From Candidatus Sulfomarinibacteraceae bacterium (GTDB lineage Bacteria > Acidobacteriota > Thermoanaerobaculia > Thermoanaerobaculales > Sulfomarinibacteraceae): a stretch of DNA of 64,000 nucleotides. The stretch's first letter is position 1; each line of letters starts with the position of its first letter. This document shows, piece by piece, positions 30,676 to 58,779 of this stretch. Both the position numbers and the translations under genes were made by a program. The DNA lies in the NCBI GenBank assembly GCA_041552055.1, contig JBFELO010000006.1, positions 6,613-70,612 of the forward strand, given 5' to 3'. The notes below the pieces were generated by a model that saw only the letters and a list, made by a program, of their open reading frames with translations, did no database searches and was not told where the DNA came from.

Positions 30676-31080
30676 GTGAACGGCCGCCGCATCCTCGTCG
30701 TCGAGGACGAATTCATCGTCGCGTTCGAGATCCAACAGACGCTCGAGGACAGGGGGTTCGCGGTGTGCGACGTGGTCGCCTCGGGTGAGGAGGCGGTGGC
30801 CGCGGCCGAGCGGGAGCGACCCGACTGCGTCCTGATGGACATCAACATCAGGGGGGCCATGGGTGGTGTCGAGGCCGCACGTCGCATCAGTGCGCAGTTC
30901 GGAGTTCCGGTTGCGTTCTTGACCGGTTTCCCCTCCGGGCAGGTGAAAGAGCAGGCGCGGGACCTGATACCGATTGCGTACTTCACCAAACCGTTGAATC
31001 TCGACGAGATCTGCGCGGTGCTGGAACGAACGCTCGGCCCGGGGGGCGTAGACTCCGATTCGGATGGCGAGGCGCCGTGA
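30676..31080 (+). CDS. Single-domain CheY-like response regulator
   Basis: RILVVEDEFIVA...PDCVLMDINI...FLTGF. The GTG follows directly after the kinase stop. Confidence 0.85.
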   Translation: MNGRRILVVEDEFIVAFEIQQTLEDRGFAVCDVVASGEEAVAAAERERPDCVLMDINIRGAMGGVEAARRISAQFGVPVAFLTGFPSGQVKEQARDLIPIAYFTKPLNLDEICAVLERTLGPGGVDSDSDGEAP

Positions 31081-31137
31081 GGGGCTCGTGGGTGGAGACC
31101 GCTCATTTTCGCTCTGCCGTCGGACTGCGAGGGTCAA

Positions 31138-32769
31138 ATGACCGACGATGTCGAGAGTAGAAGATCGCGTGCCGATCCACAGGAGGCTAACGTCGACGGT
31201 GTGGAGGCACGCCCGACCGAGTCGGAATGGGAGCTCGCGATCCACAACCGAATCGCGGATTCCTTCCTGACGACCCCGGGCGACGAGATGTTTGCGACGG
31301 TGCTCGACATCGTCCTGGAGGCGCTCGACAGCCGGCATGGGATCTTCGGCTACCTCAACTCCGACGGCGATCTCGTTGTGCCGTCCTTGATGCGAGAGAT
31401 CTTCGACGAGTGTCGGGTCGCCGACAAGAGCATCGTCTTCCCCCGGTCCTCGTGGGGCGGCATCTGGGGTGAGGCCCTTCAACACGGGCGGTCGGTGCTG
31501 TCGAACTCTGCGGGGACTTTTCCCGCAGGGCATATTCCTATCGATCGCGCGCTCTTTGCCCCGGTCATCGACGGACGGAAGGTGATCGGCCTGGTGGGCG
31601 TTGCGAGCCGCTCTGAGGATTACTCCGAGCATGATCGGGTCGTGATCGAGACGATCGCGCGCCACGCGGGTCCGATCCTCAACGCGAGACTCGAGCGTGA
31701 CGCCATCGAGACCTCGCGAGCGCGGGTCCAGTCCGAGCTGAGCGACAGCGAGCGTCGGTATCGGGCGGTGGTCGATCAACAGACCGAGCTGGTCTTGCGG
31801 TTCATGGAAGACGGAACCATCACCTTCGTCAACGATGCGTTGTGCAGGTACGCCGGGATGACCCGGGAGGAGGTCGTAGGCGAGAGATTTCATCGCTTCG
31901 TGTCCGACGAGGTGGCCGAACAGACCGAGCGGCATCTCTCGACGCTGAATCGTGACGCTCCGGTCGGCGAGAACGAGATCGAGTGGCGGGCTCCTGACGG
32001 CAGCACCCGGTGTCTCGACTGGATCAATCATGCTCTGTACGACGACGACGGCCGCCTGATCGAATATCAGGCGGTTGGCCGTGACATCACCGCCCGGCGG
32101 CGCGCCGAGCAGAAGTTGAAGGAGGCACTCGCCCAGAAGGAAATCCTGCTGCGCGAGGTCCACCACCGGGTGAAGAACAACATGGCCGTGATCTCGAGCC
32201 TGCTCAACCTGCAGGCCGAGGGCGTGACCGATCCCGCGGCGATCGCGGTGCTGCGGTCGATGGGAGACAGGATCCGCACGATGGCACTGGTCCACGATCA
32301 GCTCTACCGGACAGGAGATTTCGTCAACGTCGATCTCGGAGGGTACATCGCGAGCGTGACCGACGCGATGTTCCAGGCGCACAGCAGACGCGCGGACCAG
32401 GTGACGATCCGGACCGAGGTCGCCGACGTCACGCTGGAGATCGACAAGGCGATTCCGTGCGGCCTGATCCTGAGCGAGCTCATCAGCAACTCCCTCAAGC
32501 ACGCCTTCCCGGGTGACCGGCGTGGAGAGATCCTGGTCGTGCTCGATGAGACGCCCGATGGAGCGCTCGAGCTCATGGTGAAGGATGACGGTGTGGGCTC
32601 TCCGACGGATGAGGTGTTCCGGGCGAGTTCGGGCTTCGGGCTCGAAATGGTCGTGCTGCTCGTCAAGCAGCTGGGCGGAGCGATCGAGCTCAGCTGCCGC
32701 GAGGGCATGGAAGCCATCGTGCGTTTCCCCGGACTCGCCGACGCGCCGGAACGACAGCAGGAAACCTGA
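31138..32769 (+). CDS. Cytoplasmic GAF-PAS sensor histidine kinase (HisKA_2 type)
   Basis: No TM helices. PAS text YRAVVDQQTELVLRF...ITFVNDALCRYAGMTREE, and H-box EVHHRVKNNMAVISSLLNLQ. Confidence 0.8.
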   Translation: MTDDVESRRSRADPQEANVDGVEARPTESEWELAIHNRIADSFLTTPGDEMFATVLDIVLEALDSRHGIFGYLNSDGDLVVPSLMREIFDECRVADKSIVFPRSSWGGIWGEALQHGRSVLSNSAGTFPAGHIPIDRALFAPVIDGRKVIGLVGVASRSEDYSEHDRVVIETIARHAGPILNARLERDAIETSRARVQSELSDSERRYRAVVDQQTELVLRFMEDGTITFVNDALCRYAGMTREEVVGERFHRFVSDEVAEQTERHLSTLNRDAPVGENEIEWRAPDGSTRCLDWINHALYDDDGRLIEYQAVGRDITARRRAEQKLKEALAQKEILLREVHHRVKNNMAVISSLLNLQAEGVTDPAAIAVLRSMGDRIRTMALVHDQLYRTGDFVNVDLGGYIASVTDAMFQAHSRRADQVTIRTEVADVTLEIDKAIPCGLILSELISNSLKHAFPGDRRGEILVVLDETPDGALELMVKDDGVGSPTDEVFRASSGFGLEMVVLLVKQLGGAIELSCREGMEAIVRFPGLADAPERQQET

Positions 32770-32966: not shown

Positions 32967-34820
<1,854 letters not shown>

Positions 34821-35132
34821 CGTGCGCCGTAGGGTGCGCCTCGGCGCACCGCCGTCGATGGGCATGGGGGCTTGGTCGGCGCCTACGGCGCGTGGGCGTG
34901 AGGGCTTGCCCGAACTGCTCCGTTCATTCCCCCAGGCCCTCATGCCCTCAGGCCCTTCCGGGCGGGCGGGGGATCCGGCTTCGCGCTTCGCCTTGAAAAG
35001 CCTTCAACCTTGAGCCGTGGACCCGGGTGCGTGGGCGGGCGAGCGACTCGCGACCAGCCACCAGCGACGGCCGTGTGGGTGGGCGGATCGGGCACGGACG
35101 CGGACTCGGACGCGGGCGGGCGGGGAAGCCTC

Positions 35133-35160
35133 TAGCGTATAGCTTATAGCCTATAGCTGC
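35133..35160. repeat. Heptamer tandem array (TAGCNTA)x4
   Basis: Read directly from the sequence. Intergenic. Confidence 0.85.
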
Positions 35161-35191
35161 TTCCCCCACGCCCGCACGGCCTCACGCCCTT

Positions 35192-37486
35192 CTACAACCT
35201 CCACCCCAGCGTCACCGCGTAGCTCCGCCCCGGCTCGTTGATCGTGTTCCCGGACCGAAACGGGTTCCGCAGATAGGAGAAGTGCTCGCGGTATGTGCGG
35301 TCGAACACGTTCTCCAGGATGAGCTGGACGCGCCAGCGACCGAAGGTGATGCCGCCCTTCAGATTCAGGATCGCCCACCCCGGTGTGGCGACCTCGTCGA
35401 GGTCGGTGTCGATCTCGTCCTGATCCGCCGCTGCGAGCCATTCGGCCTCGGCGAACAGACGCGGGTTCTGCCACCGCAGGGCGAGGCGCGCCGTGAGCGG
35501 CGGCATCTCCGCGAGGTTCCCGGATGTCAAGTTCCGATCCGGATCCGTGTCCTTGGTGCCGCGGACGTACGACAGATTGCCGGACAGGTAGAACCTCGAG
35601 CTGACGGCGGCTGTGCCATCCAGCGAGACGCCCCGGAGGAGCGCGTCGACGTTGGTGTAGGTCTGCGCGCTCGGGTTCATCACTCCAGGCACCATGTTGA
35701 TCCGCTCCTGGCCGTACAGTGTGATGAAGCCGTCCACACGGTCGGCCCACATGCGGGCGGTCAGCAAACCGCTTCCGGCGCTCCACGTCAGCCCGACCTC
35801 GGCGCCGGTCGTGACCGGAGGATCGAGGACGGGGTTCCCGACCCACTCGACCCCCATCCTCTCGAGACCGAAGTACCGCTCGCGAGAATCCGGCGCACGG
35901 CTGGTGCGCGCAACACCGGCCGTCAGGTCGAGCCCCCTGCCGATGCGCTGGACCAGGAGCAGCGAGAACGACGGTTCGACGTCCTCTCGCGAGGTGTCCC
36001 GGACCCCGTGGTAGGCGAAGTACAGGTCGGTGTTGGCCTTGCCCTCGTCGGCCCTGGTCGACACGCGGTCGATCCTCCCGCCGGCCTCGAGCTGGGTGCT
36101 CGCCGAGAACTCGTGTCGCCAGCGGGCGGACAGGCCCAGAGCTTCGAGGTTCACGTCCGGGATCGAGAACTGGCGCATGTAGCTCATCATGCCGAGTTCG
36201 GTCCACGCGTCCCAGTTGCGCTGGTAGGCCTCGACGCCGACGGTGACCTCGCCGAGCACGACGTCGACCGACCCGCCGATGACCTCGGTGGAGGCGTTGG
36301 TGCCCATGCCCCAGCCGCGCGGCGCCGTGGCGCCGGTGGTGCGGTAGGTGTCTGTCATCCAGTGATCGACCCGCGTGCCGTAGGCGGTGGCGCGGATCTC
36401 GCGCAGGGTTCCGTCGCCGGATTTGGCGTAGCGGTATCCAAGAACGAGCCGGTCGGTGTTGTCGTACTCCGCGTCCATCTTCAGGGCCGAGTACAGGACG
36501 TCGTCCGACCGCTGGCCGGCGTACGACAGGTTGAGCTCGTGCACGTCGGCGGGCCGGAAGTACATCCGTGCCCAGCCGCTGTCGATGTTGTAGGCATCGA
36601 CACCCCCGACGGCGTCGGTGTAGTTGGCGGTCTCCGTGAACTTCTCGCCCGAGCCGTCGGCGAACGGCTCGCCGGAGCGATGGGACAGGCCGCCCAGGAC
36701 CGCCCATCGGTCGGTGCCGTAGCTGACGGTCGCAGACGGGTTGATCATGCCCCAGCTCCCGGTCGCCATCGAGACGTCGGCGGCCAAGCCCGCACCGGGC
36801 TTCTTGGTGACCACGTTGACCATGCCGCCCATGCTGCCCTGGGCCTCCATTCGTCCGGTCGTGGGAGCCACCTCGATGCGGTCGACCTCAGCGAAATCGA
36901 GGTGGAATGCGGGTGGGTCCATCCGGTTGGGACACGCTCCTGCGACCCGGGCGCCGTCGATCAGCACGGTGATGTCGTCCTGACGAAAGCCTCGAATCGA
37001 CACGTCATTGGCGATGCCGCCCTTGCGGACCTTCCACACGCCACCCATCCTGGACAGCGCCTCGCCGACGTCGCGCGCCGCGCTCTCGCGGAGCTCGGTC
37101 GCCTCCATCGTGGTGTGGGGCATCGGGGCGTCGACCTGCATGGTGTCGCGAAAGGTCGCGACCGAGAGCGCCAGGCGAATCCTGGTGGTCTCGCCCTCGC
37201 GGACGGCGACCTCGAGCGAGGCCGGGTGGAAACCGTGCAGGCTGCCGTTCACGGTGTAGCTCCCGGAATCGAGACCCGACATGCGAAACGCGCCGCCCTC
37301 GCCCGTGATGATCGTGCGGTCGGCGCCGCCCTCCTCACCCTGAACCGTCACGGTGACTCCCGGAAGGCCGGTGTCTCCGGGGCCCGTCACGGTTCCCGCC
37401 AGGCCGCTGGTGGCGGCCAGGGCAGGCACCGTCAGCGACGACAGCGCGAGGGCGATCGAGATCTTGCTCAACATTGAAATACTCAT
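35192..37486 (-). CDS. TonB-dependent receptor with an OprC/NosA-like copper-site signature
   Basis: Signal peptide, a CarboxypepD_reg-like N-domain and a plug. The plug contains GACPNRMDPP (CxxxM). VDHWMTD (HxM) lies 190 residues downstream. Confidence 0.85.
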   Translation of the reverse strand: MSISMLSKISIALALSSLTVPALAATSGLAGTVTGPGDTGLPGVTVTVQGEEGGADRTIITGEGGAFRMSGLDSGSYTVNGSLHGFHPASLEVAVREGETTRIRLALSVATFRDTMQVDAPMPHTTMEATELRESAARDVGEALSRMGGVWKVRKGGIANDVSIRGFRQDDITVLIDGARVAGACPNRMDPPAFHLDFAEVDRIEVAPTTGRMEAQGSMGGMVNVVTKKPGAGLAADVSMATGSWGMINPSATVSYGTDRWAVLGGLSHRSGEPFADGSGEKFTETANYTDAVGGVDAYNIDSGWARMYFRPADVHELNLSYAGQRSDDVLYSALKMDAEYDNTDRLVLGYRYAKSGDGTLREIRATAYGTRVDHWMTDTYRTTGATAPRGWGMGTNASTEVIGGSVDVVLGEVTVGVEAYQRNWDAWTELGMMSYMRQFSIPDVNLEALGLSARWRHEFSASTQLEAGGRIDRVSTRADEGKANTDLYFAYHGVRDTSREDVEPSFSLLLVQRIGRGLDLTAGVARTSRAPDSRERYFGLERMGVEWVGNPVLDPPVTTGAEVGLTWSAGSGLLTARMWADRVDGFITLYGQERINMVPGVMNPSAQTYTNVDALLRGVSLDGTAAVSSRFYLSGNLSYVRGTKDTDPDRNLTSGNLAEMPPLTARLALRWQNPRLFAEAEWLAAADQDEIDTDLDEVATPGWAILNLKGGITFGRWRVQLILENVFDRTYREHFSYLRNPFRSGNTINEPGRSYAVTLGWRL

Positions 37487-37488
37487 GG

Positions 37489-37794
37489 TCAGGCTCTCCG
37501 CCCGAGGTCCGTAAATCCTGTCGGTAATTCGATCTGGCTGCAGCGACCCCGAGATTTCCGGGTTGTCACGCCGAAGGGGCGTTCAGCCCCCGGCTGATGG
37601 TGGTCGGTCGGGCGTGGTCGGGCCGTCCGGCCCCTGGTGATCATTCCGACCAGCAAGGCCGAGACGGCTGCGCCTCCCGCGCCCACGCAGGCGAAACAGG
37701 ACGAGCACGCGCCGCCCGCGCACACGAAGGACGGCAGGTAGGCCGACAGGCCGGCCGACACGCCGACCGCGGCGGCGACATATGTGGCCCGCAT
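37489..37794 (-). CDS. Small membrane protein with a C-x4-C-x2-C-x2-C cluster between two hydrophobic segments
   Basis: ATG 37794 lies 8 nt after a strong AGGAGGTGA. Sequence: YVAAAVGVSAGLSAYLPSFVCAGGACSSCFACVGAGGAAVSALLVGMI. It is tightly packed between neighbours, with 2-3 nt gaps. Confidence 0.55.
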   Translation of the reverse strand: MRATYVAAAVGVSAGLSAYLPSFVCAGGACSSCFACVGAGGAAVSALLVGMITRGRTARPRPTDHHQPGAERPFGVTTRKSRGRCSQIELPTGFTDLGRRA

Positions 37795-37797
37795 AGC

Positions 37798-38808
37798 TCA
37801 CTCACCTCCTGCCGCGGCGCGCCTATGCACCCCATCCAGCGGCGCTTTGGTGCCGCAGGGTGCTTGACGTACCGCGGCGAACGCCGCCGCGCCCTTCGGA
37901 ATCGAAAATCCCGCTGACAGCGGCAATTCGCCGTCCTCATTCCGAAACCCGGTGAGATGCCCGGGCTCGCTCGCAGGCCTGCCGTAGTAGATGGCCTCGG
38001 TCGGACAGCTCTCCTGGCACAGCCGGCACGGTATGCACGACAGCTGGTTAATGGTGGGCGAGCCCTTGGTCTCGATCGCCCACGTCGGGCAGACGCGGGC
38101 GCACTCGCCGCAGTTGGTGCAACTGCTATGGTCGATGTGCATCCTGCGACCGAAACGCACTCCAATCCGGTTGGAGAGCGCATCGAGGGCACCAATCGGG
38201 CACAGCATGTTGCAGTAGGCGCGGCCGCCCTTGGCGAAGATGCCGAGAAACAGCAGCAGCCCGAGGTTGACGACTCCCTGGAACCTCAGGAGGTACGCCA
38301 GATCACCCTGGTTGAACGCGGCCCCGAACAGCCGCGGGACGGCGGCGAAGTTGCAGTAGTTGCAGCACAGGCTGCCGATCCCGATCGCCGGGGCGATCAT
38401 GAAGACCGACAGGTAGGCGTAGCGGAACGAGGGCGCCGGTGTGTTGGAGAAGTCGAGCTTCAACGAGGAGGGTACGATCGTGCTGCCGAGCTCGAGCGGG
38501 GCGGCCACCGGGCACAGGTGGCTGCACCAGTGCCTTCCGAGCGCGAAGGTTGTCGCGAGGATGCCGACGACCAGCGCCACGCCCATGTAGCTGCGGACGA
38601 AACCCGTCAGGAACGCCGTCGCGCTGGTGCCCTCCCGCCACACGAAGAACATGCGTGGACACCACCGCCCGCAGAAGTTCACGTCCGCTGTGAGCTGGAC
38701 GACCGCTGCCAGCGGCGGTAGGAACAGGATGATCGAGGCCAGAAGGATCACGGTCCGGTATCGGGCCCAGAACGATGTGGCGCGGGGTGTGTCGTGATCA
38801 GCCTTCAT
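37798..38808 (-). CDS. NapH/NosH/MauN-type membrane polyferredoxin
   Basis: Three CxxxCP motifs (CGRWCP, CSHLCP, CNMLCP) and two 4Fe-4S motifs (CTNCGECARVCP, CIPCRLCQESCP). ATG 38808 follows GGAGGGGAGGG. Confidence 0.8.
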   Translation of the reverse strand: MKADHDTPRATSFWARYRTVILLASIILFLPPLAAVVQLTADVNFCGRWCPRMFFVWREGTSATAFLTGFVRSYMGVALVVGILATTFALGRHWCSHLCPVAAPLELGSTIVPSSLKLDFSNTPAPSFRYAYLSVFMIAPAIGIGSLCCNYCNFAAVPRLFGAAFNQGDLAYLLRFQGVVNLGLLLFLGIFAKGGRAYCNMLCPIGALDALSNRIGVRFGRRMHIDHSSCTNCGECARVCPTWAIETKGSPTINQLSCIPCRLCQESCPTEAIYYGRPASEPGHLTGFRNEDGELPLSAGFSIPKGAAAFAAVRQAPCGTKAPLDGVHRRAAAGGE

Positions 38809-39412
38809 GGTGGTGACCCTCCCCTCCACCGAAGATCACCGGGATCTCGAGCACCGGTTTGTCGGTGGCCGTGTCGTGGAAGGTGACCGCGTACCTCCCG
38901 GCGGGGCGTGGCCCGGCGTGGAAGCGATCCGGGTCTCGGGAAAACTGGTCGAGACAGGACTGCGAGCAGAGCCACACGGTCCGTCCGTGATGCGCGAATC
39001 CGATGAAGTCGTCCTGCTTCCCCATCCCGCACACCGGATCGACCTCGGCCGGCCGCATCACCACCCACAGCGTGAAGCGGTCCCTGGGTTGGAGACCGAT
39101 CAATGTGTGGTCTTCGAAGCGGGGACGCCTTCGCAGACCGAGGTCGATGACGGGATCGGAACCGTACACGTCGTAGGAGAGCGCCGGCCCTCCCTCCACG
39201 GCCACACGAGTGTCGCCGCGGTAGGGGGGCAGGATCGTGCCGGTCACCACCAGGGTGTAGCGGTCCTTGCCGCTCGGCAGGTGCACCGGATGATGGGCCT
39301 TGCCTCCCTTGACGGAGACCATGCCCATTGCGTGAGCCGAGTCTCCGGGCCGGTACCAGGCGGCCGCGACCGAGAGGACGACAGCGAACGAGAACACCGC
39401 GAGACGTTTCAT
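38798..39412 (-). CDS. Exported YHS/TRASH-domain protein with a His-rich C-terminus
   Basis: Signal peptide MKRLAVFSFAVVLSVAAA. YHS-like DPVCGMGKQ...WLCSQSCLDQFSRDP. Tail GGGEGHHHEG. Confidence 0.7.
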   Translation of the reverse strand: MKRLAVFSFAVVLSVAAAWYRPGDSAHAMGMVSVKGGKAHHPVHLPSGKDRYTLVVTGTILPPYRGDTRVAVEGGPALSYDVYGSDPVIDLGLRRRPRFEDHTLIGLQPRDRFTLWVVMRPAEVDPVCGMGKQDDFIGFAHHGRTVWLCSQSCLDQFSRDPDRFHAGPRPAGRYAVTFHDTATDKPVLEIPVIFGGGEGHHHEG

Positions 39413-39471
39413 GGGGTCACCCCCTGTCTGATCGGTTGAACGAGGCGCTTCATGTGGTCCTCCGGATCCGG

Positions 39472-41868
39472 TCAGAAGCGGTAGGCGACGCGCGCGAGCA
39501 CGTACCTGGGCGCGGTTGGTGAGTAGCGACGACCGCCGTACAGGTCTTTCTGAGCCTCCACCGCGTACCGCCTGTCGAACAGGTTCTGGATGAGCAGCGC
39601 CACCTCGAACTTGCGAGCCTGGAAACCCAGGGTGAGGTCGGTGACGAAGCTGTACCCCTCGTACATCTCGCTGTTGGCGTTGTCCATCCAGTACTCGCCC
39701 CAGGTGTTGGCCGTGGCCTGCACGAAGGCGCCCGAGCGGTGCACGTACCCGGCGAACACCGAGTAGTAGTGTTCCGGGATGAACGGCAGGGCGTTGCCGC
39801 TCCGGTCGAGGTTGCGGCCGAACGCCGGCTCGGAGAACTCCTTGAACGTGTAGTCGGAGTAGGTGTAGCTGCCGCCCAACGAGACCCCGAGCCACGGCAT
39901 CCAGGTGACGGCCAGCTCGAGGCCCTTCTTTTCGGTCTCACCCGCGTTGACGTAGGCGGTTTCGCCGTAGGGCTGGATCACCTGGACCACCTCGTCCTGC
40001 ACCGGGCTGTAGTACACCGCGGTGTCCAGGGTGAGGTACTGCCGGCGGGCCTTGAAGCCGACCTCGTAGTTCATGACCTTGGTGAGGTCCAGGTCGGGGT
40101 TGAGGATCAGCTCGTCCGAGGTCGGCGTCTGGGTGCCGGTCGAGATGTTGCCGTAGAAGTGGAATGCGTCGCTCAGGTTGCATACCGCACCGATTCGAGG
40201 GCTGAACGCCGTGTAGGTCTTGACGGTGTCGATCGGGCCCTCGCCGTCGACGTAGCTCCCGCTGCTCCAGTCGTAGTCGATCCACTCGTGGCCTGAGACG
40301 TCGAATTTGATGCGGTCGAATCGGACACCCACGTCCACCAACCAGCGATCTCCGAGCTGGAGCGACTCCTGGGCGTAGATGCCGTACAGCGAGGTTTCCC
40401 TGCTCAGCGACCGCATCCGGTCGCCGACCTCGTCCGACAGGGTCGAGAGGATGCGGCCGCTCGGTGTCGTCACGACGTCGGCGTAGGTGTACGCCTCTGA
40501 GTCCTGGTTGTCGGCACGCGCGGTGACCCCGCCGGTGAGAACGCCGAACCCGTGATCGTAGTCGGCCTGCAGGTCGAGACCGCCGACCCAGGTGTCGGCC
40601 TCGTTGATCCGCGCCGTGATCGGGTGGAAGTGACTCCACGAGTTGAGGTACAGCAGCGGCATGAACTGGACCTTGCCAAAGCTCTTGACCAGCTTCGAGC
40701 CGAAGAACAGGATCTCCGAGTTCCTGGAGTTGTGCTTCCACGGCTCGCCGGTGCGTTCGACATCGCCGCTCTCCAAGTAGGGGGTCCACTGGTCGACGCC
40801 GGAGTCATTGCTGACGATGAGCCGCCCCGGAAGCTGGAGATCGGCGTCGGTGTAGCTGATGAAGTTCTCCCACACCCATCCGTTCCCCAGAATCCACGAG
40901 GGCTGCAGGGTGAACTGGGTGGTGTCGAACTCGTTCCACTCGCGCCAGTCGTTGGTCGACTGACGACGGCTGAAGTTGAGATTGAAGAAGTGCGTGTCCG
41001 CGATGTCGCCGGTGTAGCCGACCTGCAGGTTCCGGGCGCCGTAGTTGCCCACGTCCAATCGCGCATTCGCACCCTGGCCGTCGAACGGGCTCTTGGTGAC
41101 GACGTTGATGGCGCCGCCGGTCGAGTTGATCCCCCACAGGGTCGAGTTCGGCCCGCGCACGACCTCGATCCTGTCCACCAGATGGGTGTCCACGAGGTCG
41201 AGCCTGGTCAGGCTGTCGGGGTCCGTGATCGGGATCCCGTTGAGCAGTAGCATGACCTCGCGGATGGCGTAGCGCGCCTTGAGCCCCGCACCCCGGATGA
41301 TCAGGCGTGCGTCGTACCCCTGATTCTTGGACTCGATCAGCGTGCCCGGGGTGCCGGCGATCGCCTCCTTGATGTTGGTCATGGGGGTCTTGGATATGGT
41401 GTCCGGGCCGATGACGCTCACGGCCGCCGGGACCTGCTCGGTGGGCCGTGCGGTCCTGGTCGCCGTGACGGTGATCGACTCTTTGAAGCGGGCGGTCAGC
41501 GCGACGTCGTGCTCCACCTCGCGGCCGTCTTCGAGCTCGATGGTGGCGGCGTAGGATTCGTACTCGGGGTTGTCCACCTTGATTGTGTAGTTCCCCGGCT
41601 CCAGCCCGGTGAACGCGTACCTGCCGTGGTCCTGAGTCGTGGCGCGGCTCGCGAGCTCGAGCTCCGCGCGCTCGAGGTGCAGGGTGACCCCCGGAACCCC
41701 GTCAAGCTGGTCGTACGAAGCGGTCACCACCCGGCCGGTTATCGCGCCGATGGCGCCGTCTTCGGCCCTCGGGTCCGCACCGGGTGCACAGACGAATATG
41801 CACAGCAAACCGCAGATCAGGTGGACGGCTCGACGTTCACCCGAATCGCGAGATCGTGAGCAGGTCAT
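39472..41868 (-). CDS. TonB-dependent receptor (CarboxypepD_reg N-domain, plug, barrel)
   Basis: Plug text IIRGAGLKARYAIREVMLLLNGIPITDPD and VVRGPNSTLWG, with a C-terminal VAYRF. ATG 41868 follows GGGAGGAAG. Confidence 0.9.
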   Translation of the reverse strand: MTCSRSRDSGERRAVHLICGLLCIFVCAPGADPRAEDGAIGAITGRVVTASYDQLDGVPGVTLHLERAELELASRATTQDHGRYAFTGLEPGNYTIKVDNPEYESYAATIELEDGREVEHDVALTARFKESITVTATRTARPTEQVPAAVSVIGPDTISKTPMTNIKEAIAGTPGTLIESKNQGYDARLIIRGAGLKARYAIREVMLLLNGIPITDPDSLTRLDLVDTHLVDRIEVVRGPNSTLWGINSTGGAINVVTKSPFDGQGANARLDVGNYGARNLQVGYTGDIADTHFFNLNFSRRQSTNDWREWNEFDTTQFTLQPSWILGNGWVWENFISYTDADLQLPGRLIVSNDSGVDQWTPYLESGDVERTGEPWKHNSRNSEILFFGSKLVKSFGKVQFMPLLYLNSWSHFHPITARINEADTWVGGLDLQADYDHGFGVLTGGVTARADNQDSEAYTYADVVTTPSGRILSTLSDEVGDRMRSLSRETSLYGIYAQESLQLGDRWLVDVGVRFDRIKFDVSGHEWIDYDWSSGSYVDGEGPIDTVKTYTAFSPRIGAVCNLSDAFHFYGNISTGTQTPTSDELILNPDLDLTKVMNYEVGFKARRQYLTLDTAVYYSPVQDEVVQVIQPYGETAYVNAGETEKKGLELAVTWMPWLGVSLGGSYTYSDYTFKEFSEPAFGRNLDRSGNALPFIPEHYYSVFAGYVHRSGAFVQATANTWGEYWMDNANSEMYEGYSFVTDLTLGFQARKFEVALLIQNLFDRRYAVEAQKDLYGGRRYSPTAPRYVLARVAYRF

Positions 41869-42032
41869 ATCGCTTCCTCCCTTGCTCGGAACGCCTGATG
41901 ACAGTCCCTGGGGGGTCGCTTCGCCCGCGGAGCGATGCGCGCCGTTGCGGACGCGCAGCGCCGGTCAGACCTCGGATCGCGTGCGACCGCGGCCCGGGTT
42001 GTGGCGGGTTTGCGCTCCCAGAATTCTTGTGA

Positions 42033-42464
42033 TCAGGCGGTCGGGGGAGCGCGCGGGGAGGATGGCGAGAGGGCCGCGGTCGACGATGGGATCACGTCGA
42101 GGCGCGTGGCTGTCAGCCGGTGCCCGCACGGCGCGGCAACGGCGAGCCCCCGATCGGTCGTCAGCAAGACCCATGACTGGCCCGGCGGCCGCTGGAGGGT
42201 CCCCGCTGCGGCGCCGCAGCGCTCGTGGGAGTGCCACGCCGGTGCGCCGGCACCTCTGCGAATGATCGGCGGCCGGGGATCGTCGGGCCGGGCCGGGCCG
42301 TGGTTGCAGCAGTCGGCCGTGCAGTGGCACTCGCCGGGACAGCAGCAGTAGTAGGTGGACGCCGGAGTGCCGCCGGCGGCGCTCGGAGCGACGCCCGCAC
42401 CGGCGACTTGGCCCATCGCCACCACCAGCGCCAGTGTCACTCGGAGAAGGCGTCTGTCCTTCAC
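42033..42464 (-). CDS. Secreted Cys/His-rich small protein (YYCCCPGECHCTADCCNHG). First gene after the sigma54 promoter.
   Basis: GTG 42464 gives the signal-like KDRRLLRVTLALVVAMGQVAGAG. Eight Cys and two His fall within 19 residues. The SD is weak, and the coding status of the Pro/Arg-rich C-terminal part is uncertain. Confidence 0.45.
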   Translation of the reverse strand: MKDRRLLRVTLALVVAMGQVAGAGVAPSAAGGTPASTYYCCCPGECHCTADCCNHGPARPDDPRPPIIRRGAGAPAWHSHERCGAAAGTLQRPPGQSWVLLTTDRGLAVAAPCGHRLTATRLDVIPSSTAALSPSSPRAPPTA

Positions 42465-42576
42465 GCTTCTGTTCCGTTCTTCGACACGGCCACCTCTGTT
42501 GTCCTCCGAACCGGCGCCCCAGGCGCGACCCCGGGGCGGGGATCCGGGTCGGAAGGAGTTGAGCGTCAGAAGAGTT

Positions 42577-42593
42577 CGCAAGATCCGTGCCGA
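42577..42593 (-). promoter_or_regulatory. Sigma54 (-24/-12) promoter cGGCACGgatcTTGCg
   Basis: The reverse complement of 42578-42592 matches TGGCACG-N4-TTGC at all positions except the first T. It lies about 110 nt upstream of GTG 42464, with an A8 tract about 27 bp further upstream. Confidence 0.6.
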
Positions 42594-42823
42594 TTTCAGG
42601 GAATCAAGTTTATGTCATTTTTTTTCAATATATTGGAGTGTTTCTGGGGGACTCGACGCGACCTCGCAAGGCCGGTGTGCGACACTCGGTCTGAGACACT
42701 CGGATGGAGGCGTGGGTTGTCACTCTCAGCCAGTACAAGTGGGTTGAAATGTTGTGAATATTGAATTTACTGAGTCCTACAGCTGCCGCGATCGGCAGCC
42801 GAAGCTGTCTCACGACAGCGTTC

Positions 42824-42850
42824 GAGACACCGAGACACTGAGACACTCGG
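42824..42850. repeat. Octamer array GAGACACN x3, which is GTGTCTC x3 when read toward the minus-strand promoter
   Basis: Read directly from the sequence. The mirror copy is at 51498-51524. Confidence 0.85.
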
Positions 42851-42974
42851 GAAGGGCGTGAGGGCTTGGCCGGTGCCTGCGGCACCTGGGCTTGGGGGCC
42901 TGGGGGAGGAACGTCAGGAGAGGGGCGTCTCGGGTGTCGGATGGTGGACGCGAACTGTAGGCCGATGACAGCGC

Positions 42975-43135
42975 CTACTGCGGGCGTGCCGTCTTTGACA
43001 ATGTTGGGAGCACGACCACCCAGTCGGGGTGGAACGTTGGGTCCCAACATTGTCTAAGGGGGCAACCGCGGGGAGCGCGCCGGGGAGAGGGGACGTAGAA
43101 GCGTCTCCAACCTGTCGGACCGAGAGGCTCCGGCC
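42975..43135. repeat. Composite intergenic repeat, hairpin copy (arms 42997-43009 / 43042-43054)
   Basis: gacaatgttggga ... tcccaacattgtc, with flanks ctgcgggcgtgccg and ggggcaaccgcggggagcgcgccggggagagggg. Confidence 0.85.
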
Positions 43136-43319: not shown

Positions 43320-43802
43320 ATGATTCGGTCCATGTCGTGTACACCGATCCGGTTGTTGTTCGGCGCTTTCGTGCTGACCGCGGTGCTGGTCGGCCCCGCG
43401 ACCGCGGCGGACCCGCGGCCGCCCGGACCGAAGGACCGCTGCCCGGTGTGCGGCATGTTCGTCGAGAAGTACCGCAACTGGACCGCGACAGTCATGTTCG
43501 AGGACGGATCTCAGGTCTTCTTCGACGGGCCCAAGGACCTGTTCAAGTTCCTGCTCGACCCGACCAGGTACGGCCGCGAGAAGTCGCCGATCGCAGACGT
43601 GTTCGTGACGGACTACTACACCACCAAGCTCCTGGACGCCAGGGAGACGCTGTTCGTGGTGGGCAGCGACGTCATGGGCCCGATGGGACCCGAGCTGGTG
43701 CCAATCACGACCCCGGAGCATGCGGAGGCGTTCCGCGCCGACCACGGGGGAGAGCAGGTCCTCACCTTCGACCAGGTCACGGCGGACGCGATCCCGAAGT
43801 GA
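43320..43802 (+). CDS. nosL: NosL-family copper chaperone (exported)
   Basis: DRCPVCGMFVEKYRNWTATVMFEDGSQVFFDGPKDLFKF, with a signal peptide. Confidence 0.85.
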   Translation: MIRSMSCTPIRLLFGAFVLTAVLVGPATAADPRPPGPKDRCPVCGMFVEKYRNWTATVMFEDGSQVFFDGPKDLFKFLLDPTRYGREKSPIADVFVTDYYTTKLLDARETLFVVGSDVMGPMGPELVPITTPEHAEAFRADHGGEQVLTFDQVTADAIPK

Positions 43803-43804
43803 CC

Positions 43805-44116
43805 ATGCTCAAGCACAGGGTCTTCGCCGCGGTCACGCTGCTCGAGGTCGCCCTCCTGGTGGTACTGGTGCTCCACTGCAACGCGCGCCGTCAGCGAGAG
43901 TCGGCGAGCGTGATCCCCGCCAACCGGCACCTCGCCCGGCAGCTCGAGCTCACGGACCTCGCGATCTGGACGGAGGCGCGCTACACCCGCCACCCCTCGC
44001 AGGCGGACCGGTTCGCACCATTCCAGGACCTGCCGTCCTCGCTCGAGCACTTCCCCGCGGGATCGGTCGTCCCGCCCCCCGAGCGCGCCCCCGAGCCGGG
44101 GCGGGGATCGCGGTAG
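43805..44116 (+). CDS. Small single-pass membrane protein, unknown function
   Basis: The ATG lies 3 nt after the nosL stop. TM helix VFAAVTLLEVALLVVLVL. Confidence 0.45.
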   Translation: MLKHRVFAAVTLLEVALLVVLVLHCNARRQRESASVIPANRHLARQLELTDLAIWTEARYTRHPSQADRFAPFQDLPSSLEHFPAGSVVPPPERAPEPGRGSR

Positions 44117-44127
44117 GCTGGGGCGCC

Positions 44128-45285
44128 ATGCAACGGTTCAAGATCCTCGAGTACGCGCTGTCGTCGCTCGGACGCCGCAAGGGCAAACACCTTTCGATCA
44201 TAGCCGTCTACGCCTTCACCATCAGCGTGCTGGCGTCGATCCTGCTCCTCAGCCACGCCCTGCGGGAGGAGGCGTCCGCGATTCTGGCCGACGCTCCGCA
44301 CGTCGTGGTCCAGCGGATCTCCGCCGGCCGCCACGACCTGATCTCCACCGACATCATCGATCCGGTGCGGCAGATCCCCGGCGTCGGGGAGGTCCGCCCG
44401 CGCTACTGGGGCTACTACTTCGACGGAATCACCGGCGCCAACTACACCGTGCTCGGCATCGATGACCGGCGCACGGTCGAGCTCGAGTTGCTGGAAGGCG
44501 CGCTGCCCGAGGCACCGGGTGAGTGTGCGGTCGGCGGCGGGGTGTCGGAGCTGCGAGAGGCCGGCATCGGCGACGAGCTGGTGCTGGTCGACAGCCGCGG
44601 TGTCGGGGTGATCTTCGAGGTGGTCGGCGCGTTTCGCTCGGAGTCGAACCTTCTGACCAACGATCTTGTAGTGATGTCGAACGCCGACGTGATCGAGTTC
44701 TTCGACCTGCCGCAGAACCGGGCCACCGACCTCTCGGTCGAGGTTTTCAACCCCAAGGAGGTCCAGACCGTCGCGGCCAAGATCAAGGTGCTCTACCCCG
44801 ATACCAGGCCGATCACCAGGAGCGAGATCATCAGGACCTACGACGCGGTGTTCCACTGGCGCAGCGGCATGGTGCTCATGGTCTTCTTCTCGGCGTTGAT
44901 CGCCTTCTGCATCCTGGCGTGGGACAAGGCCACCGGCATAAGCGCCGAGGAGCGGCGGGAGATCGGGATCCTCAAGGCGATCGGCTGGTCCACCTCGGAC
45001 GTGCTCGAGCTCAAGTTCTGGGAGGGAGCGGCGATCTCGGTGACCTCTTTCCTGCTCGGTCTGATCGCCGCCTTCGTCCACGTGTTCCTGCTCGACGCCC
45101 CGGCACTGGCCGCGGTGGTCAAGGGCTGGTCAGTGCTGTTCCCGCAGTTTCGGCTCACCCCCTCCCTCAACCTGTACCAGATCTTCGTCATGGGCTTCCT
45201 CACGGTGGTGCCGTACGTCGCCAGCACGGTGATCCCGTCCTGGACGGCCGCCATCACCGACCCGGAGGAGGTGATGCGGGCATGA
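44128..45285 (+). CDS. ABC transporter permease, FtsX/MacB-LolC type with a periplasmic domain
   Basis: TM1, then a roughly 220-aa extracytoplasmic domain, then three TM helices. Contains GILKAIGWS. Confidence 0.85.
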   Translation: MQRFKILEYALSSLGRRKGKHLSIIAVYAFTISVLASILLLSHALREEASAILADAPHVVVQRISAGRHDLISTDIIDPVRQIPGVGEVRPRYWGYYFDGITGANYTVLGIDDRRTVELELLEGALPEAPGECAVGGGVSELREAGIGDELVLVDSRGVGVIFEVVGAFRSESNLLTNDLVVMSNADVIEFFDLPQNRATDLSVEVFNPKEVQTVAAKIKVLYPDTRPITRSEIIRTYDAVFHWRSGMVLMVFFSALIAFCILAWDKATGISAEERREIGILKAIGWSTSDVLELKFWEGAAISVTSFLLGLIAAFVHVFLLDAPALAAVVKGWSVLFPQFRLTPSLNLYQIFVMGFLTVVPYVASTVIPSWTAAITDPEEVMRA

Positions 45286-45980
45286 CCGCGACCGCGTCGA
45301 CCCTGATCGCCACCGAGGGCGTCACCAAGGTGTACAACTCACGCCGGCCGGACGAGACGGTCGCGGTCGCCGGCGTGTCGATGGAGGTCGGTCAGGGAGA
45401 GGTCGTCGTGCTGAAGGGGCCGAGCGGCTCGGGCAAGACCTCGCTGCTCAGCCTGGTCGGCTGCATGGCCCGGCCGACCTCCGGGCGGATCGTGGTCGAC
45501 GGGCGCGACGTCGCCAAGCTCGCCGAGAGCGTGCTCACCGAGGTGCGCCGGCAGACGTTTGGATTCATCTTCCAGCAGTTCAACCTGATCCCCGGACTGA
45601 GCGTGATCGAGAACGTGTCCCTGCCGCTGGTCCCGGTGACGATCGGGCTTGCGGACATGAGGCACCGTGCCGAGGGCGTGCTCCGGCGACTGGAACTCGG
45701 CGCAAAGGCGCGGCGCAAGGTCCGCCAGCTGTCCGGGGGCGAGCAGCAGCGGGTGGCGATCGCGCGGGCCCTCATCAACGAGCCCGAGGTGGTGGTCGCC
45801 GACGAGCCCACGGCCCACCTCGACCGCGCCCTGTCCGAGGAGCTGCTCGTGATCCTCGCGGAGCTCAACCGGGAGGGGCGAACCGTGATCGTGGCGACCC
45901 ACGACCCACTGGTCTACGAGCACCCGTTCGTGACCCGCGTGCTGGCGATGCGCGACGGCCGGATCGAGACGGCGAGCTGA
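45282..45980 (+). CDS. ABC transporter ATP-binding protein
   Basis: Walker A GPSGSGKTS, signature LSGGEQQRVAIARAL and Walker B VVVADEPT. ATGA overlap with the permease. Confidence 0.9.
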   Translation: MTATASTLIATEGVTKVYNSRRPDETVAVAGVSMEVGQGEVVVLKGPSGSGKTSLLSLVGCMARPTSGRIVVDGRDVAKLAESVLTEVRRQTFGFIFQQFNLIPGLSVIENVSLPLVPVTIGLADMRHRAEGVLRRLELGAKARRKVRQLSGGEQQRVAIARALINEPEVVVADEPTAHLDRALSEELLVILAELNREGRTVIVATHDPLVYEHPFVTRVLAMRDGRIETAS

Positions 45981-45982
45981 CG

Positions 45983-46990
45983 GTGATCCTGCATCCGGGC
46001 ACCCTGTCGCTCATCCTCGGCAGTGCCATCGTGCTGGTCATGGTGACGTACGGCGGTTGGATCGGGCTGCAGATCCTGTTCCGGTGGGACTTCAGCAGCA
46101 GTTCCGAGGGTCAGCTCGACCTCGAGCGCAAGACCTCGCTGGTGTCGACGCTCGCCGCCTACGCGCTCGGCTTCCAGGCGGTGTCGACCCTGCTCTACCT
46201 GTACACCGTGGACGACATCCACAGCCTCTTCGTGGGCGCCATGTGCGCCACCGGCTCGCTCAACGCCGCGCCTGGTGGCTGGGCGGTGCTGGCCGTCAAG
46301 AGCGCGGCGCTCTTTCTGTCGCTGATCTGGATCGCGTTCAACCACTTCGACCAGAGGGCGGGGGACTACCCGATCGTGCGCTTCAAGTACGCGGCGCTGC
46401 TGGTTCTCGCCCCACTCGTCGCGGCGGACCTGGCGTTACTTGTCCGCTACTTCACCGGGCTCGAACCCGAGGTCATCACCTCGTGCTGCGGCGCCCTGTT
46501 CAGCGAGGGGGGAACCGGAGTGGCGAGCGAGGTCGCGAGCCTGCCCGTGGTGCCAATGCTGTGGCTGTTCTACGCCACGGTCGCCGCGTTCCTGGCGGCC
46601 GCGCTCGTATGCGTGGTGGGCCGGGCGCGGGGCTCGAGGTACGCGCTCGCGGGAATCTCGATGGCACTTCTCGCGGTGGTGCTGGCGTCAATCGTGTCGT
46701 TCCTGTCGCTGTACGTCTACGAGCTGCCGACCCACCACTGTCCGTTCGACATGCTCCAGCGGCAATACGGCTTTATCGGCTATCCGATCTACCTGACGCT
46801 GCTCGCGGCGGTGTACTTCGGCCTCCTGCCGGGGCTGTTCCAGCCGTTGCGGAGGATCCCGAGCCTGTCAGGGTTGATCGCGGCCGCCGAGCCGAGGTGG
46901 CTGACCTGGGCGCTGGTGTCGGTGCTCGCGTTCGTCGCCATCGCCTCGTGGCCGGTGCTGTTCGGGTCGCTTACGATGATCGGTTACTGA
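45983..46990 (+). CDS. Polytopic membrane protein of unknown function (conserved-looking SCCG and HHCPFD motifs)
   Basis: About eight hydrophobic helices. The GTG lies 3 nt after the ATPase stop. Confidence 0.55.
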   Translation: MILHPGTLSLILGSAIVLVMVTYGGWIGLQILFRWDFSSSSEGQLDLERKTSLVSTLAAYALGFQAVSTLLYLYTVDDIHSLFVGAMCATGSLNAAPGGWAVLAVKSAALFLSLIWIAFNHFDQRAGDYPIVRFKYAALLVLAPLVAADLALLVRYFTGLEPEVITSCCGALFSEGGTGVASEVASLPVVPMLWLFYATVAAFLAAALVCVVGRARGSRYALAGISMALLAVVLASIVSFLSLYVYELPTHHCPFDMLQRQYGFIGYPIYLTLLAAVYFGLLPGLFQPLRRIPSLSGLIAAAEPRWLTWALVSVLAFVAIASWPVLFGSLTMIGY

Positions 46991-47573: not shown

Positions 47574-48188
47574 ATGAGCAGATTCAGGCAGGTGGTGACA
47601 GTTTTATCTCTAAGTGCGGCGCTCACGACGATATTCGCCCCGTCTCCTGCGGCGGCCGACGACAAGCAGCGTTTCACCCGCGACGAGGTCACGGTCGTGC
47701 CGCCGGCCGTCACCCTGATCGACCAGAACGGCGACACGGTTGACTTCGAGGCGGCGCTGTCTTCGGACAGACCGGTGTTCGTGGACTTCATCTTCGCCAC
47801 CTGCACCACCATCTGCCCGGTGCTCTCCGCCGGCTACTCGAGCATCCAACGCAAGCTCGGCGAAGACCGGGAGCGGGTCCACCTGATCTCGATCACCATT
47901 GATCCCGAGCACGACGGTCCCGAGGAGCTGACCGGCTACCTCGAGCGGTACCGCGCGCAGTCCGGCTGGGATTTCCTGACCGGGACCCGCCAGGACATCG
48001 ATGCTGTGATGCGCGCTTTCGACGCCTTCGTGCCCGACAAGATGTCCCACAAACCGCTGATCTTCATCCGCTCGCCACAGGACGACAGCTGGGTGCGGCT
48101 GTACGGCTTCGCCCGCAGCTCCGACCTGATGGCCGAGCTGGAGCGGGCTGCAGGAGAAGCCGAGGCGGGAGAGGAGGTGGCGCGATGA
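47574..48188 (+). CDS. SCO1/SenC-family copper chaperone / thiol-disulfide protein
   Basis: Signal peptide. FIFATCTTICP (CxxxCP), LISITIDPEHD and a downstream His (MSHKP). Confidence 0.85.
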   Translation: MSRFRQVVTVLSLSAALTTIFAPSPAAADDKQRFTRDEVTVVPPAVTLIDQNGDTVDFEAALSSDRPVFVDFIFATCTTICPVLSAGYSSIQRKLGEDRERVHLISITIDPEHDGPEELTGYLERYRAQSGWDFLTGTRQDIDAVMRAFDAFVPDKMSHKPLIFIRSPQDDSWVRLYGFARSSDLMAELERAAGEAEAGEEVAR

Positions 48189-51289: not shown

Positions 51290-51440
51290 CTCCCCGTGTG
51301 TGCCCCCCTTGACAATGTTGGGCAGCGGCCCGCCTCCCCCGTTTCGGCGACGGTGCCCCCAACATTGTCAAGAACGGCACCCCGCAGATCGCGCTGTCGT
51401 CCGCCCGCCGTTCGCGTCAATCGTCCGACACCCGAGGGGC
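51290..51440. repeat. Composite intergenic repeat, hairpin copy in inverted orientation (arms 51311-51322 / 51358-51369)
   Basis: gacaatgttggg ... cccaacattgtc, with the flank aacggcaccccgcagat. Confidence 0.85.
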
Positions 51441-51497
51441 GCTCTCCCGACGTTCCTCCCGCAAGCCCTCGAGCCCCCAAGCCAACACGTCCCTCCC

Positions 51498-57300: not shown

Positions 57301-57329
57301 CCATGACCATTCAGACAAAGGAGCGAGCC

Positions 57330-58766: not shown

Positions 58767-58779
58767 GAGGAGGAGCGTC

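Follow-up and report, generated by a model that had tools for sequence, protein, structure and literature searches.

To our knowledge, copper acquisition by Gram-negative bacteria is poorly understood, and the only receptors that have been studied are OprC/NosA, CrtA and those for methanobactin, all of them from Proteobacteria. Here, we describe a gene cassette from Candidatus Sulfomarinibacteraceae bacterium, a member of the Acidobacteriota, in which TonB-dependent receptor (TBDR) genes are joined to genes for a membrane polyferredoxin and small Cys-rich proteins. The cassette lies in a stretch of 64,000 nucleotides, hereafter the window (contig JBFELO010000006.1, positions 6,613 to 70,612 of the forward strand), and coordinates refer to the window unless another locus is named. 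On balance, we lean towards reading it as a system under sigma54 control that acquires a thiophilic metal, most likely copper, in a TonB-dependent manner.

Two studied proteobacterial systems pair a TBDR copper importer with a putative reductase of the inner membrane. These are OprC-PA3789 of Pseudomonas aeruginosa and CrtA-CrpH, and a periplasmic reductase role has been proposed for PA3789, encoded beside OprC, and for CrpH, encoded beside CrtA (PMC8610252, PMC12914433, PMC13038864). In OprC, Cu is bound by two residues of the plug, Cys143 and Met147, and two of the barrel, His323 and Met325 (PMC8610252). CcoG is a characterised bacterial cupric reductase (PMC7558416).

The operon in the window comprises six co-oriented genes on the minus strand, running from 42464 to 35192 downstream of a sigma54-type -24/-12 element. 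The first, g1 (42033-42464; GTG start), encodes an exported Cys/His-rich protein of 143 aa. It is followed by the core importer of the cassette, TBDR1 (39472-41868; 798 aa), with CarboxypepD_reg, plug and barrel domains; g3 (38798-39412; 204 aa), a membrane-anchored, predicted periplasmic beta-sandwich protein with an inserted YHS/TRASH-like module; the membrane polyferredoxin (37798-38808; 336 aa, the start used in the calls of JGI, with an alternative GTG start at 38829 that gives 343 aa); g5 (37489-37794; 101 aa), a 4-Cys microprotein predicted to form a two-helix membrane hairpin; and TBDR2 (35192-37486; 764 aa, started at 37474 by the JGI callers), an OprC/NosA-like receptor. The gaps are 164 nt between g1 and TBDR1, 59 nt between TBDR1 and g3, 3 nt between the polyferredoxin gene and g5, and 2 nt between g5 and TBDR2 (14 nt with the JGI start); g3 and the polyferredoxin gene overlap by 11 nt, or by 32 nt if the start at 38829 is used. 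An earlier note, made from the sequence of the window without database searches, had described six tightly packed genes, and its spacings agree with these open reading frame (ORF) coordinates. Its description of an operon bracketed by microproteins fits the first five genes and not the six-gene operon, and the two proteins in question have 143 and 101 aa. As it also held, the layout is unlike any described siderophore or copper locus, and our literature searches found no description of the cassette.

The conserved unit consists of the first five genes, from g1 to g5. The order TBDR1-g3-polyferredoxin-g5 is kept, as far as the contigs reach, in 44 fetched loci outside the window's own contigs (a count that includes two loci with a deletion remnant); the genes overlap or nearly abut, and a g1-like ORF lies upstream in most of the loci that extend that far. 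A tblastn search with the window proteins over 28 loci (GTDB genomes, JGI/ENA/NCBI metagenomes and exact-protein look-ups) returned the same order wherever the contig reaches, with g1 upstream in all that reach so far, and gene calls and Pfam gave the same order in six further, distant loci (L042-L047; g3 identity 34-52%). Named genomes with the cassette are metagenome-assembled genomes (MAGs) of Acidobacteriota and Thermoanaerobaculales, plus one MAG labelled 'Deltaproteobacteria'. TBDR2, a NosL operon described below and the 101-aa form of g5 occur only in the clade of the window (L011-L014 and the P0006 contig). In L042, L043, L045 and L047, ExbB-ExbD-TonB genes are appended directly after the microprotein gene, which firmly ties the cassette to TonB-dependent uptake. 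The TBDRs of L042-L045 and L047 have no CarboxypepD_reg domain; L046 has neither this form of the receptor nor TonB genes, and the contig of L044 ends before the TonB position.

Two loci, L021 (278-789) and L022 (720-1270), were considered as a pairing of g1 with g5 that dispenses with the middle genes. Judged by eye, their ORFs suggest a deletion remnant instead: the 3' end of g1 seems to be joined to the apparent final codons of the polyferredoxin gene, after which the microprotein gene is intact, and TBDR1, g3 and most of the polyferredoxin gene appear to have been lost in that population.

By sequence, three of the five cassette proteins (g1, g3 and g5) are without a Pfam or NCBIfam family, and none of the five belongs to the OprC-PA3789 or cruR-crtA-crpH families. 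The latter system (Bordetella and Pseudomonas; PMC12914433, PMC13038864) resembles the cassette in its layout, with a small ORF in first place, then a TBDR and a redox protein of the inner membrane, in some cases with ExbBD-TonB and Sco/PCuAC chaperones, and in its link to the supply of respiratory cuproenzymes. It differs in that TBDR1 falls outside the CrtA cluster, g1 encodes a 143-aa exported Cys-rich protein, and control in the window is probably by sigma54 and an activator. No PepSY_TM gene was found in any cassette locus.

The closest tie to a known copper importer is that of TBDR2. Pfam recognises its Plug (56 bits) and TonB_dep_Rec_b-barrel (98 bits) domains, together with CarboxypepD_reg, an N-terminal addition relative to OprC. 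A phmmer search of PDB sequences placed OprC (6FOK) first, with an E-value of 7e-18, and residues 120-757 align with OprC 78-716 end to end in one alignment. The sequence GACPNRMD is identical in the two proteins, and C185xxxM189 falls on C143xxxM147 of OprC; vDHWMtd aligns to aDHIMdn, and H375xM377 falls on H323xM325. Because these motifs stand in alignment register, all four OprC Cu ligands are present in TBDR2 (C185, M189, H375 and M377), C185 being its only Cys. The earlier note had pointed to CPNRM in the plug and HWM 190 residues later, which is the distance between C185 and H375, and had proposed alignment with the OprC site as a test; the four residues line up. The motifs are kept in L011-L014, and the HxM alignment in L012. 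TBDR2 is thus OprC-like at the binding site by sequence, yet a distant relative and not an equivalog.

As in the OprC-PA3789 system, a predicted outer-membrane copper importer and an inner-membrane redox protein share one operon here; unlike in that system, the redox partner is an Fe-S polyferredoxin with a 4-Cys hairpin and not a haem PepSY_TM protein, and TBDR2 is accessory to the cassette. The notion of a redox module set between two importers, also put forward in the earlier note, therefore describes the operon in the window and not its ancestral state, in which the polyferredoxin follows one importer (TBDR1), because TBDR2 is a lineage-specific addition.

The product of g1 begins with a signal peptide, followed by Y-CCCxGxCxCTxDCCNHGP, an RCG motif and an invariant C-terminal SPRAPP, with nine Cys in all. 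JGI pipelines left the gene uncalled on the source contigs; elsewhere, a gene for the identical 143-aa protein has been called (P0332), and 11 A-type relatives reach down to 42% identity. The relative in L012 keeps the GTG start, and its differences from g1 by codon position (25/22/55) indicate that the gene is under coding constraint. A diverged B-type, with CxCx3CxC, ARCGCG and a C-terminal EHxHPPR, occupies the same slot upstream of TBDR1 in most other loci that reach that far. None of the 34 g1 homologues is named or carries a Pfam domain. The earlier note had staked its reading on conservation of the two small Cys-rich ORFs, and both recur in related genomes, with 53 homologues in the case of g5. 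In an AlphaFold2 (AF2) model of g1, the signal peptide alone is predicted and the remainder is disordered (pLDDT 43). Such predicted disorder would be compatible with metal-dependent folding, though it is no evidence of it. The spacer between g1 and TBDR1 is long in all loci (96-305 nt; 41869-42032, minus strand, in the window), and each lineage has an apparent GC-rich stem-loop after the stop codon of g1. Together, these features may allow a higher ratio of g1 to TBDR1 expression.

The polyferredoxin matches Fer4_5 twice and a 4Fe-4S dicluster in Pfam. It has four predicted transmembrane (TM) helices; its motifs are CX3CP, which occurs three times, a single CCxYC, and the 4Fe-4S motif CxxCxxCxxxC(P), present twice, and 17 Cys residues are invariant across all versions, including distant orthologues. 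In the earlier note it had been called NapH-like. The architecture bears this out, since the four TM helices, CX3CP and two C-terminal 4Fe-4S motifs expected of NapH are present and NapH is the best NCBIfam match, but the score (60 bits) falls short of the equivalog cutoff of 234 and is below the MauN cutoff too, and nap genes for partners (NapG/NapAB) were absent among the neighbours in every locus. With CcoG/FixG, YccM (a short homologue) and NapH, the protein shares a TM helix followed by GRxWCxxxCP (Fer4_5 twice) and the C-terminal dicluster. Unlike these, it has a third CX3CP and a CCxYC, and it is always paired with the 4-Cys hairpin. The Fer4_18 score of 20 bits is below the cutoff of 27, no match to the Ig-like FixG_C domain was found, and the ccoGHIS context is missing. 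A genuine CcoG is encoded at 4595-5995 in the window, with Fer4_18 and FixG_C, adjoining FixH and CcoI, and is 24% identical to the polyferredoxin. Since the cbb3 oxidase cluster thus has its own CcoG, the polyferredoxin is a paralogue and not the CcoG. Sequence comparison places it as a distinct member of the CcoG/NapH superfamily.

The g5 gene always lies directly 3' of, or overlaps, the polyferredoxin gene. Its 53 homologues, without a Pfam or NCBIfam match, share the motif VCxGxxCSSCFACVGAGGAA and an invariant cluster C25-x4-C30-x2-C33-x2-C36 at the tip of the hairpin; more distant versions keep C-x3-4-C-x2-C-x2-C. Hydropathy and charge suggest a two-helix hairpin with an uncharged loop (CAGGACSSC) at the outer face and a C-terminal tail with 11 K/R inside. 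On the same grounds, the four-helix topology of the polyferredoxin would put one CX3CP, the CCxYC and the hairpin Cys at the periplasmic face, and the other two CX3CP motifs and the diclusters inside.

This arrangement bears on a further explanation, in which the polyferredoxin-hairpin pair chiefly supplies reductant to g1 or other periplasmic Cys, in the manner of DsbD/CcdA, and is neither a metal reductase nor a transporter. Besides the Cys predicted to face the periplasm, the need of g1 for reduced thiols to bind soft metals and a thioredoxin/SCO-like gene near the cassette in L042 would fit such a role. However, the cassette holds no conserved partner with a thioredoxin fold, and a 4Fe-4S dicluster is typical of electron transfer to metals or quinones and not of thiol-disulfide exchange. 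We regard a role confined to reductant supply as unlikely; it is compatible with the copper acquisition system that we favour and partly contained in it.

In the AF2 model of g3 (pLDDT 89.6), an N-terminal helix (residues 2-19) precedes a beta-sandwich and a separate inserted mini-domain. The insert has the form DPVCG...C..C, with DPVCG conserved, and the C-terminal tail reads GHHHEG; D24, H27 and H41 are invariant. The YHS match (PF04945) is weak in the window protein (20.5 bits against a cutoff of 30.3), and homologues such as P0058, P0093 and P0122, among others, carry a precomputed PF04945 match. Among 112 g3 homologues, some lineages have the YHS insert and others do not. The family is small and unnamed; 1.8 billion representatives yielded about 46 clusters at E<1e-30. 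An origin of g3, the polyferredoxin and g5 as a diverged FixH-FixG-FixS set was considered and rejected: g3 has no FixH match, the polyferredoxin does not carry Fer4_18 or FixG_C, and the genuine ccoG and fixH genes are found at 4104-5995.

Sigma54 control, which the earlier note had assigned to the operon, is backed by promoter conservation, shared repeats resembling upstream activating sequences (UAS) and an orthologous activator. The -24/-12 element, an exact pattern match (GGCACGGATCTTGC, 42578-42591, minus strand), lies about 110 nt before the g1 start codon, with GG and GC 10 nt apart in a TGGCAC-N5-TTGC-like arrangement upstream of the first gene (cGGCACggatcTTGCg) and with an A/T-rich tract immediately upstream. 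The L012 relative keeps it as GGCACGGAACTTGC, together with the 5' untranslated region. The bare GGCAC-N5-TTGC motif is not significant, since its two occurrences in 64 kb compare with 0.61 expected, and two or more arise in 12% of shuffles. The element before g1 is credible because of its position, its conservation in L012 and the repeats upstream. A proximal pair of CCGAGTGTC(T/G)CA repeats (42677-42703, minus strand; direct-repeat family D1), about 90-115 nt upstream of the -24/-12 element, provides candidate UAS sites, and two adjacent GTGTCTCA-type repeats are kept in L012. A distal triple GTGTCTC(A/G) repeat with a TGTC..GAGACA inverted repeat (42805-42850, minus strand) follows at about 240-270 nt upstream of the promoter. 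In this region, CCGAGTGTCTCAG-like repeats occur four times, at 42677-42703 and 42830-42850. No sigma70-like promoter was found in a scan of 34700-43100, where terminators were not above chance, and Rfam at gathering thresholds gave zero matches across the 64 kb, riboswitch and leader families included.

The sole other exact GGCAC-N5-TTGC match in the window is a second sigma54 promoter of full consensus (TGGCACGGACATTGCT, 51776-51791, plus strand). Three tandem GTGTCTCA repeats (51497-51524) and TGTCTCA-N9-TGAGACA (51661-51683) lie upstream of it, and the three exact copies of CGAGTGTCTCA in the 64 kb all fall within the two sigma54 promoter regions. The two -24/-12 elements are near-identical, and about 275 nt upstream of both promoters are homologous, the block around 42805-42850 matching 51305-51560. 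Downstream of the second promoter (52159-61249, plus strand) are genes for a 1713-aa secreted beta-helix protein and three multicopper oxidase (MCO)-like proteins of 487, 474 and 342 aa (Pfam Cu-oxidase_3/_2), of which the 487-aa protein has visible HxHGH and HCHxxxxHxxxGM motifs. Homologues of these MCO-like proteins were not found in any fetched locus, L046 included. The second promoter probably belongs to the same regulon as the uptake operon.

A candidate for the activator of the operon is encoded at 32967-34820 (plus strand), convergent with it. By Pfam, this protein is a sigma54-dependent response regulator with a receiver, a PAS-like sensor with a Cys motif, AAA+ and helix-turn-helix domains. 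Over the sensor and AAA+ domains it is 46% identical to an activator encoded directly upstream of the cassette in L046, where a GG-N10-GC element (TGGTATGGACATTGC) precedes the g1-like ORF. The sensor (33500-33760, plus strand) contains HC...C....C..C, partly kept as C...C..C in L046 (1206-2693), and this motif is a candidate metal- or redox-sensing site. From the shared sequences we infer one regulon under this activator, which would couple the import genes to cuproenzyme genes.

Further features were seen in these regulatory regions. An 88-aa ORF, a candidate gene only, with C-x24-CNHDHC-x11-C occupies 51847-52113 (plus strand) in the leader of about 380 nt before the 1713-aa gene. Between genes there is also a REP-like palindrome, GACAATGTTGGG...CCCAACATTGTC, whose arms are separated by about 46 nt and give 10 matches against 0.1 expected by chance; copies lie at 3004-3061, 18776-18833, 42997-43054 and 51311-51369, with partial ones at 13462 and 47185, and two of the copies lie where the homologous upstream regions of the two sigma54 promoters end on their distal side. 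HWE/PAS/GAF histidine kinases are encoded at 29257-32769, upstream of the activator gene, and adjoin a gene for a 1108-aa multihaem cytochrome with cytochrome c7 repeats and an MtrC/MtrF-like domain (25863-29189, minus strand).

Copper-related genes surround the operon. A divergent operon (43332-46990, plus strand; Pfam) carries genes for the NosL lipoprotein, a single-TM protein of 103 aa, a permease of the FtsX type, an ABC ATPase and a protein of 335 aa with eight TM helices and CC and HHC motifs, and its order is the same in a 61%-identical relative (P0006 contig, JGI gene calls). By analogy, the FtsX/ABC set may be a MacB-type mechanotransducer that works with NosL, loosely comparable to NosDFY-NosL. 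In the position of NosL, L001 (3246-3785, minus strand) and L005 (4921-5508, minus strand) have a divergent gene for a 179-aa lipoprotein with four CxCG..CxC...G.C.CG modules and no Pfam match. At E-values up to 10, the 335-aa protein gave no meaningful Pfam or NCBIfam family, as did the 103-aa protein, g1, g5 and the Cys-rich lipoprotein of L001. An SCO1/SenC copper chaperone is encoded at 47574-48188 (plus strand; PF02630, 76 bits). The cbb3-type oxidase cluster (390-9353, minus strand; Pfam) is complete with ccoG, fixH and ccoI: besides CcoG, it encodes a fused CcoN-CcoO (6843-9353), CcoP (6008-6805), FixH (4104-4598), a DsbD_2 membrane protein (3182-3934) and a CcoI-type P1B ATPase (390-2831). 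In distant loci, NosL is found near the cassette in L043, and genes for MopE-like, Cu-oxidase-like and CusB(YHS)/CusA proteins lie directly downstream of it in L046. Copper is favoured as the substrate because of the OprC-type site of TBDR2 and its best NCBIfam match (TIGR01778), the YHS insert, the invariant D/H/H residues and GHHHEG tail of g3, NosL, SCO1, the cbb3 oxidase, and the MCO, MopE and CusBA neighbours.

Gene content, motif alignments, synteny and shared promoter architecture were read directly from the DNA. Which metal is handled, which way electrons flow, which proteins act as partners and what signal governs expression are parts of a proposed mechanism, as are copper as the substrate and the reductive handling of the imported metal that the earlier note had suggested. 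In this mechanism, g1 would be an exported, metallothionein-like Cys-rich protein that is disordered in the apo form. TBDR2, added at the 3' end in the lineage of the window, would import ionic Cu through CxxxM/HxM, and TBDR1 would import a second form of copper, either a chelate or g1-bound. Metal would be captured in the periplasm by g3, g1 or both. The polyferredoxin, jointly with the 4-Cys hairpin, would pass electrons through its two 4Fe-4S clusters and the CX3CP/CCxYC Cys; the outcome could be reduction of Cu(II) to Cu(I), maintenance of Cys ligands in the reduced state, relay of Cu(I) across the inner membrane, or some combination of these. Copper would then pass to the NosL and SCO1 chaperones and to cuproenzymes, namely the cbb3 oxidase and the three MCO-like proteins.

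Several observations weigh against this proposal. Its main weakness, as far as the core cassette is concerned, lies in TBDR1 and its ligand. TBDR1 orthologues in close loci are 71-86% identical and share an invariant W411xH413xH415P motif; the receptor lacks the OprC motif, and no Cys or Met residue is invariant in it. Its closest PDB relatives are YncD and PqqU (1e-34), with a match mainly over the plug. The match to the CrtA structure (9RVQ) is likewise limited to the plug and, at an E-value of 2.6e-14, stands well behind YncD/PqqU, and TBDR1 does not join the CrtA cluster. These relatives raise the possibility that TBDR1 imports a redox cofactor such as pyrroloquinoline quinone (PQQ), which the polyferredoxin would recycle or reduce, the metal-binding features being secondary. 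The PqqU equivalog NF041535 is indeed its second-best NCBIfam match, but at 148 bits against a cutoff of 1200; PQQ-dependent dehydrogenases were not seen nearby, and the Cys-rich proteins, the YHS insert and the OprC-like partner would be left unexplained. We consider import of such a cofactor very improbable.

Siderophore receptors are also among the nearest relatives of TBDR1: its PDB neighbours include FhuA, FoxA and Fiu, and its best NCBIfam match is the TonB-siderophore subfamily (180 bits; cutoff 223). The core cassette might then import iron, as a ferric chelate or in protein-bound form, with the polyferredoxin as ferric-chelate reductase or electron sink and TBDR2 alone handling copper. 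Such roles have been proposed for FoxB/FhuF-type reductases and for FtrD in FtrABCD, and an FtrD-like protein is encoded after TonB in L045. Iron is disfavoured by the neighbouring genes (NosL, SCO1, MopE, MCO and CusBA) and by two features of the cassette itself, the YHS insert and the Cys-rich g1, all of which favour copper, as well as by the likely co-regulation with MCO-like genes. The cassette is also without siderophore biosynthesis genes and without an iron permease of the ABC, FeoB or Ftr1 type. Iron as the substrate of the core cassette seems improbable to us.

The promoters of other loci bear on the same question and count further against copper acquisition under sigma54. Most cassette loci (variant B) do not have TBDR2, NosL or the YHS insert, and the evidence for copper is therefore concentrated in some lineages. 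Variant-B cassettes also have a different, conserved sigma70-like promoter (CTTGC.., TGTTAT.., GTGTTCTCAAAATG), found at 3930-3985 in L001, with equivalents in L005, L007-L010, L023, L025, L028, L031 and L037. An A/T-rich, partly palindromic box (TTCAATCATTGAA in L001) overlaps the -10 region of these promoters. This box may be the operator of a metalloregulator and could belong to the Fur family, which would suit iron, but no recognisable Fur box was defined.

Even TBDR2 departs from OprC. Its best NCBIfam match, TIGR01778 'TonB-copper', scores 161.6 bits against a cutoff of 472.45, and the methionine track of OprC (M286, M339, M341, M343 and M348) is not kept, the loop ssmmpmpmas being replaced by aprgwgmgtnas with one Met. 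For g3, the best Foldseek match is a two-domain laccase of cupredoxin fold; we do not claim a fold assignment, because such cupredoxin-type matches are weak (TM-score 0.38). The 4Fe-4S domain of the polyferredoxin is predicted, by analogy with NapH and CcoG, to be cytoplasmic, so that delivery of electrons to the periplasm is not obvious. More generally, statements on function rest on sequence, synteny and analogy, and the organisms are uncultured.

The Cys-rich ligands would also suit Zn, Cd, Hg, Ni or Fe-S chemistry. Accordingly, the cassette could serve another thiophilic element (Zn, Cd, Hg, Ni/Co or Se/S species), with g1, the hairpin and the polyferredoxin as a Mer-like thiol relay and reductase, and with the copper genes nearby as coincidence or cross-talk. 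The numbers of Cys (nine in g1, four invariant in g5 and 17 in the polyferredoxin), the CxCG...CxC lipoprotein of L001 and L005, and TauE and AIRS-domain genes upstream of the cassette in L044 would be in keeping with this. Copper-handling genes recur, however, in three independent lineages, no matches to Mer, Znu, Cnt or Nik families were found, and the OprC site has been reported as copper-specific, without Zn binding (PMC8610252). Overall, an element other than copper or iron appears distinctly unlikely.

The cassette can also be compared with relays and uptake systems for other metals. It would share three elements with the Mer relay: a Cys protein in the periplasm, a small membrane protein whose Cys lie within or close to its TM helices, and a reductase that faces the cytoplasm. 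In that relay, mercury passes from MerP to MerT, MerC or MerF and then to MerA. Unlike it, the cassette is coupled to a TonB-dependent importer and its putative reductase is an Fe-S protein and not a flavoenzyme; no sequence relationship was detected. In the ferrous iron uptake system FtrABCD (FtrD) and the Campylobacter P19 locus, a NapH-like polyferredoxin likewise forms part of a metal-uptake operon as an electron sink or source, and P19 loci also hold an FtrD-like protein and FtsX-type ABC components. The cassette differs from these in the absence of an Ftr1-type permease, P19 or an FtrB cupredoxin, in import through a TBDR, and in its Cys-rich ligand chemistry.

A bolder form of the copper proposal would treat the polyferredoxin, the hairpin and g3 as an unrecognised inner-membrane machine that, by means of Fe-S clusters and a Cys relay through the membrane, reduces and possibly translocates Cu immediately after its passage through a TBDR. 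In this form, g1 would be a ribosomally made, metallothionein-like 'protein chalkophore' or dedicated periplasmic carrier and the true ligand or partner of TBDR1, and the whole would make up a complete pathway of copper import, distinct from those of methanobactin, OprC/PepSY, CrtA/CrpH and CcoA. We hold this form to be doubtful. The polyferredoxin-hairpin module has a modest chance of being an inner-membrane device that works by a new mechanism.

In Acidobacteriota-type environmental bacteria, these data reveal a compact, conserved cassette that contains three unnamed protein families and a new branch of CcoG/NapH polyferredoxins, and that ties outer-membrane import to Fe-S redox chemistry. 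The two sigma54 promoters with a common upstream motif define a testable regulon that would link copper import to MCO-like enzymes. If the redox or relay model is true, the cassette would reveal the site and manner of Cu(II) reduction and onward transfer once TonB-dependent import is complete, a step that is open even in model systems.

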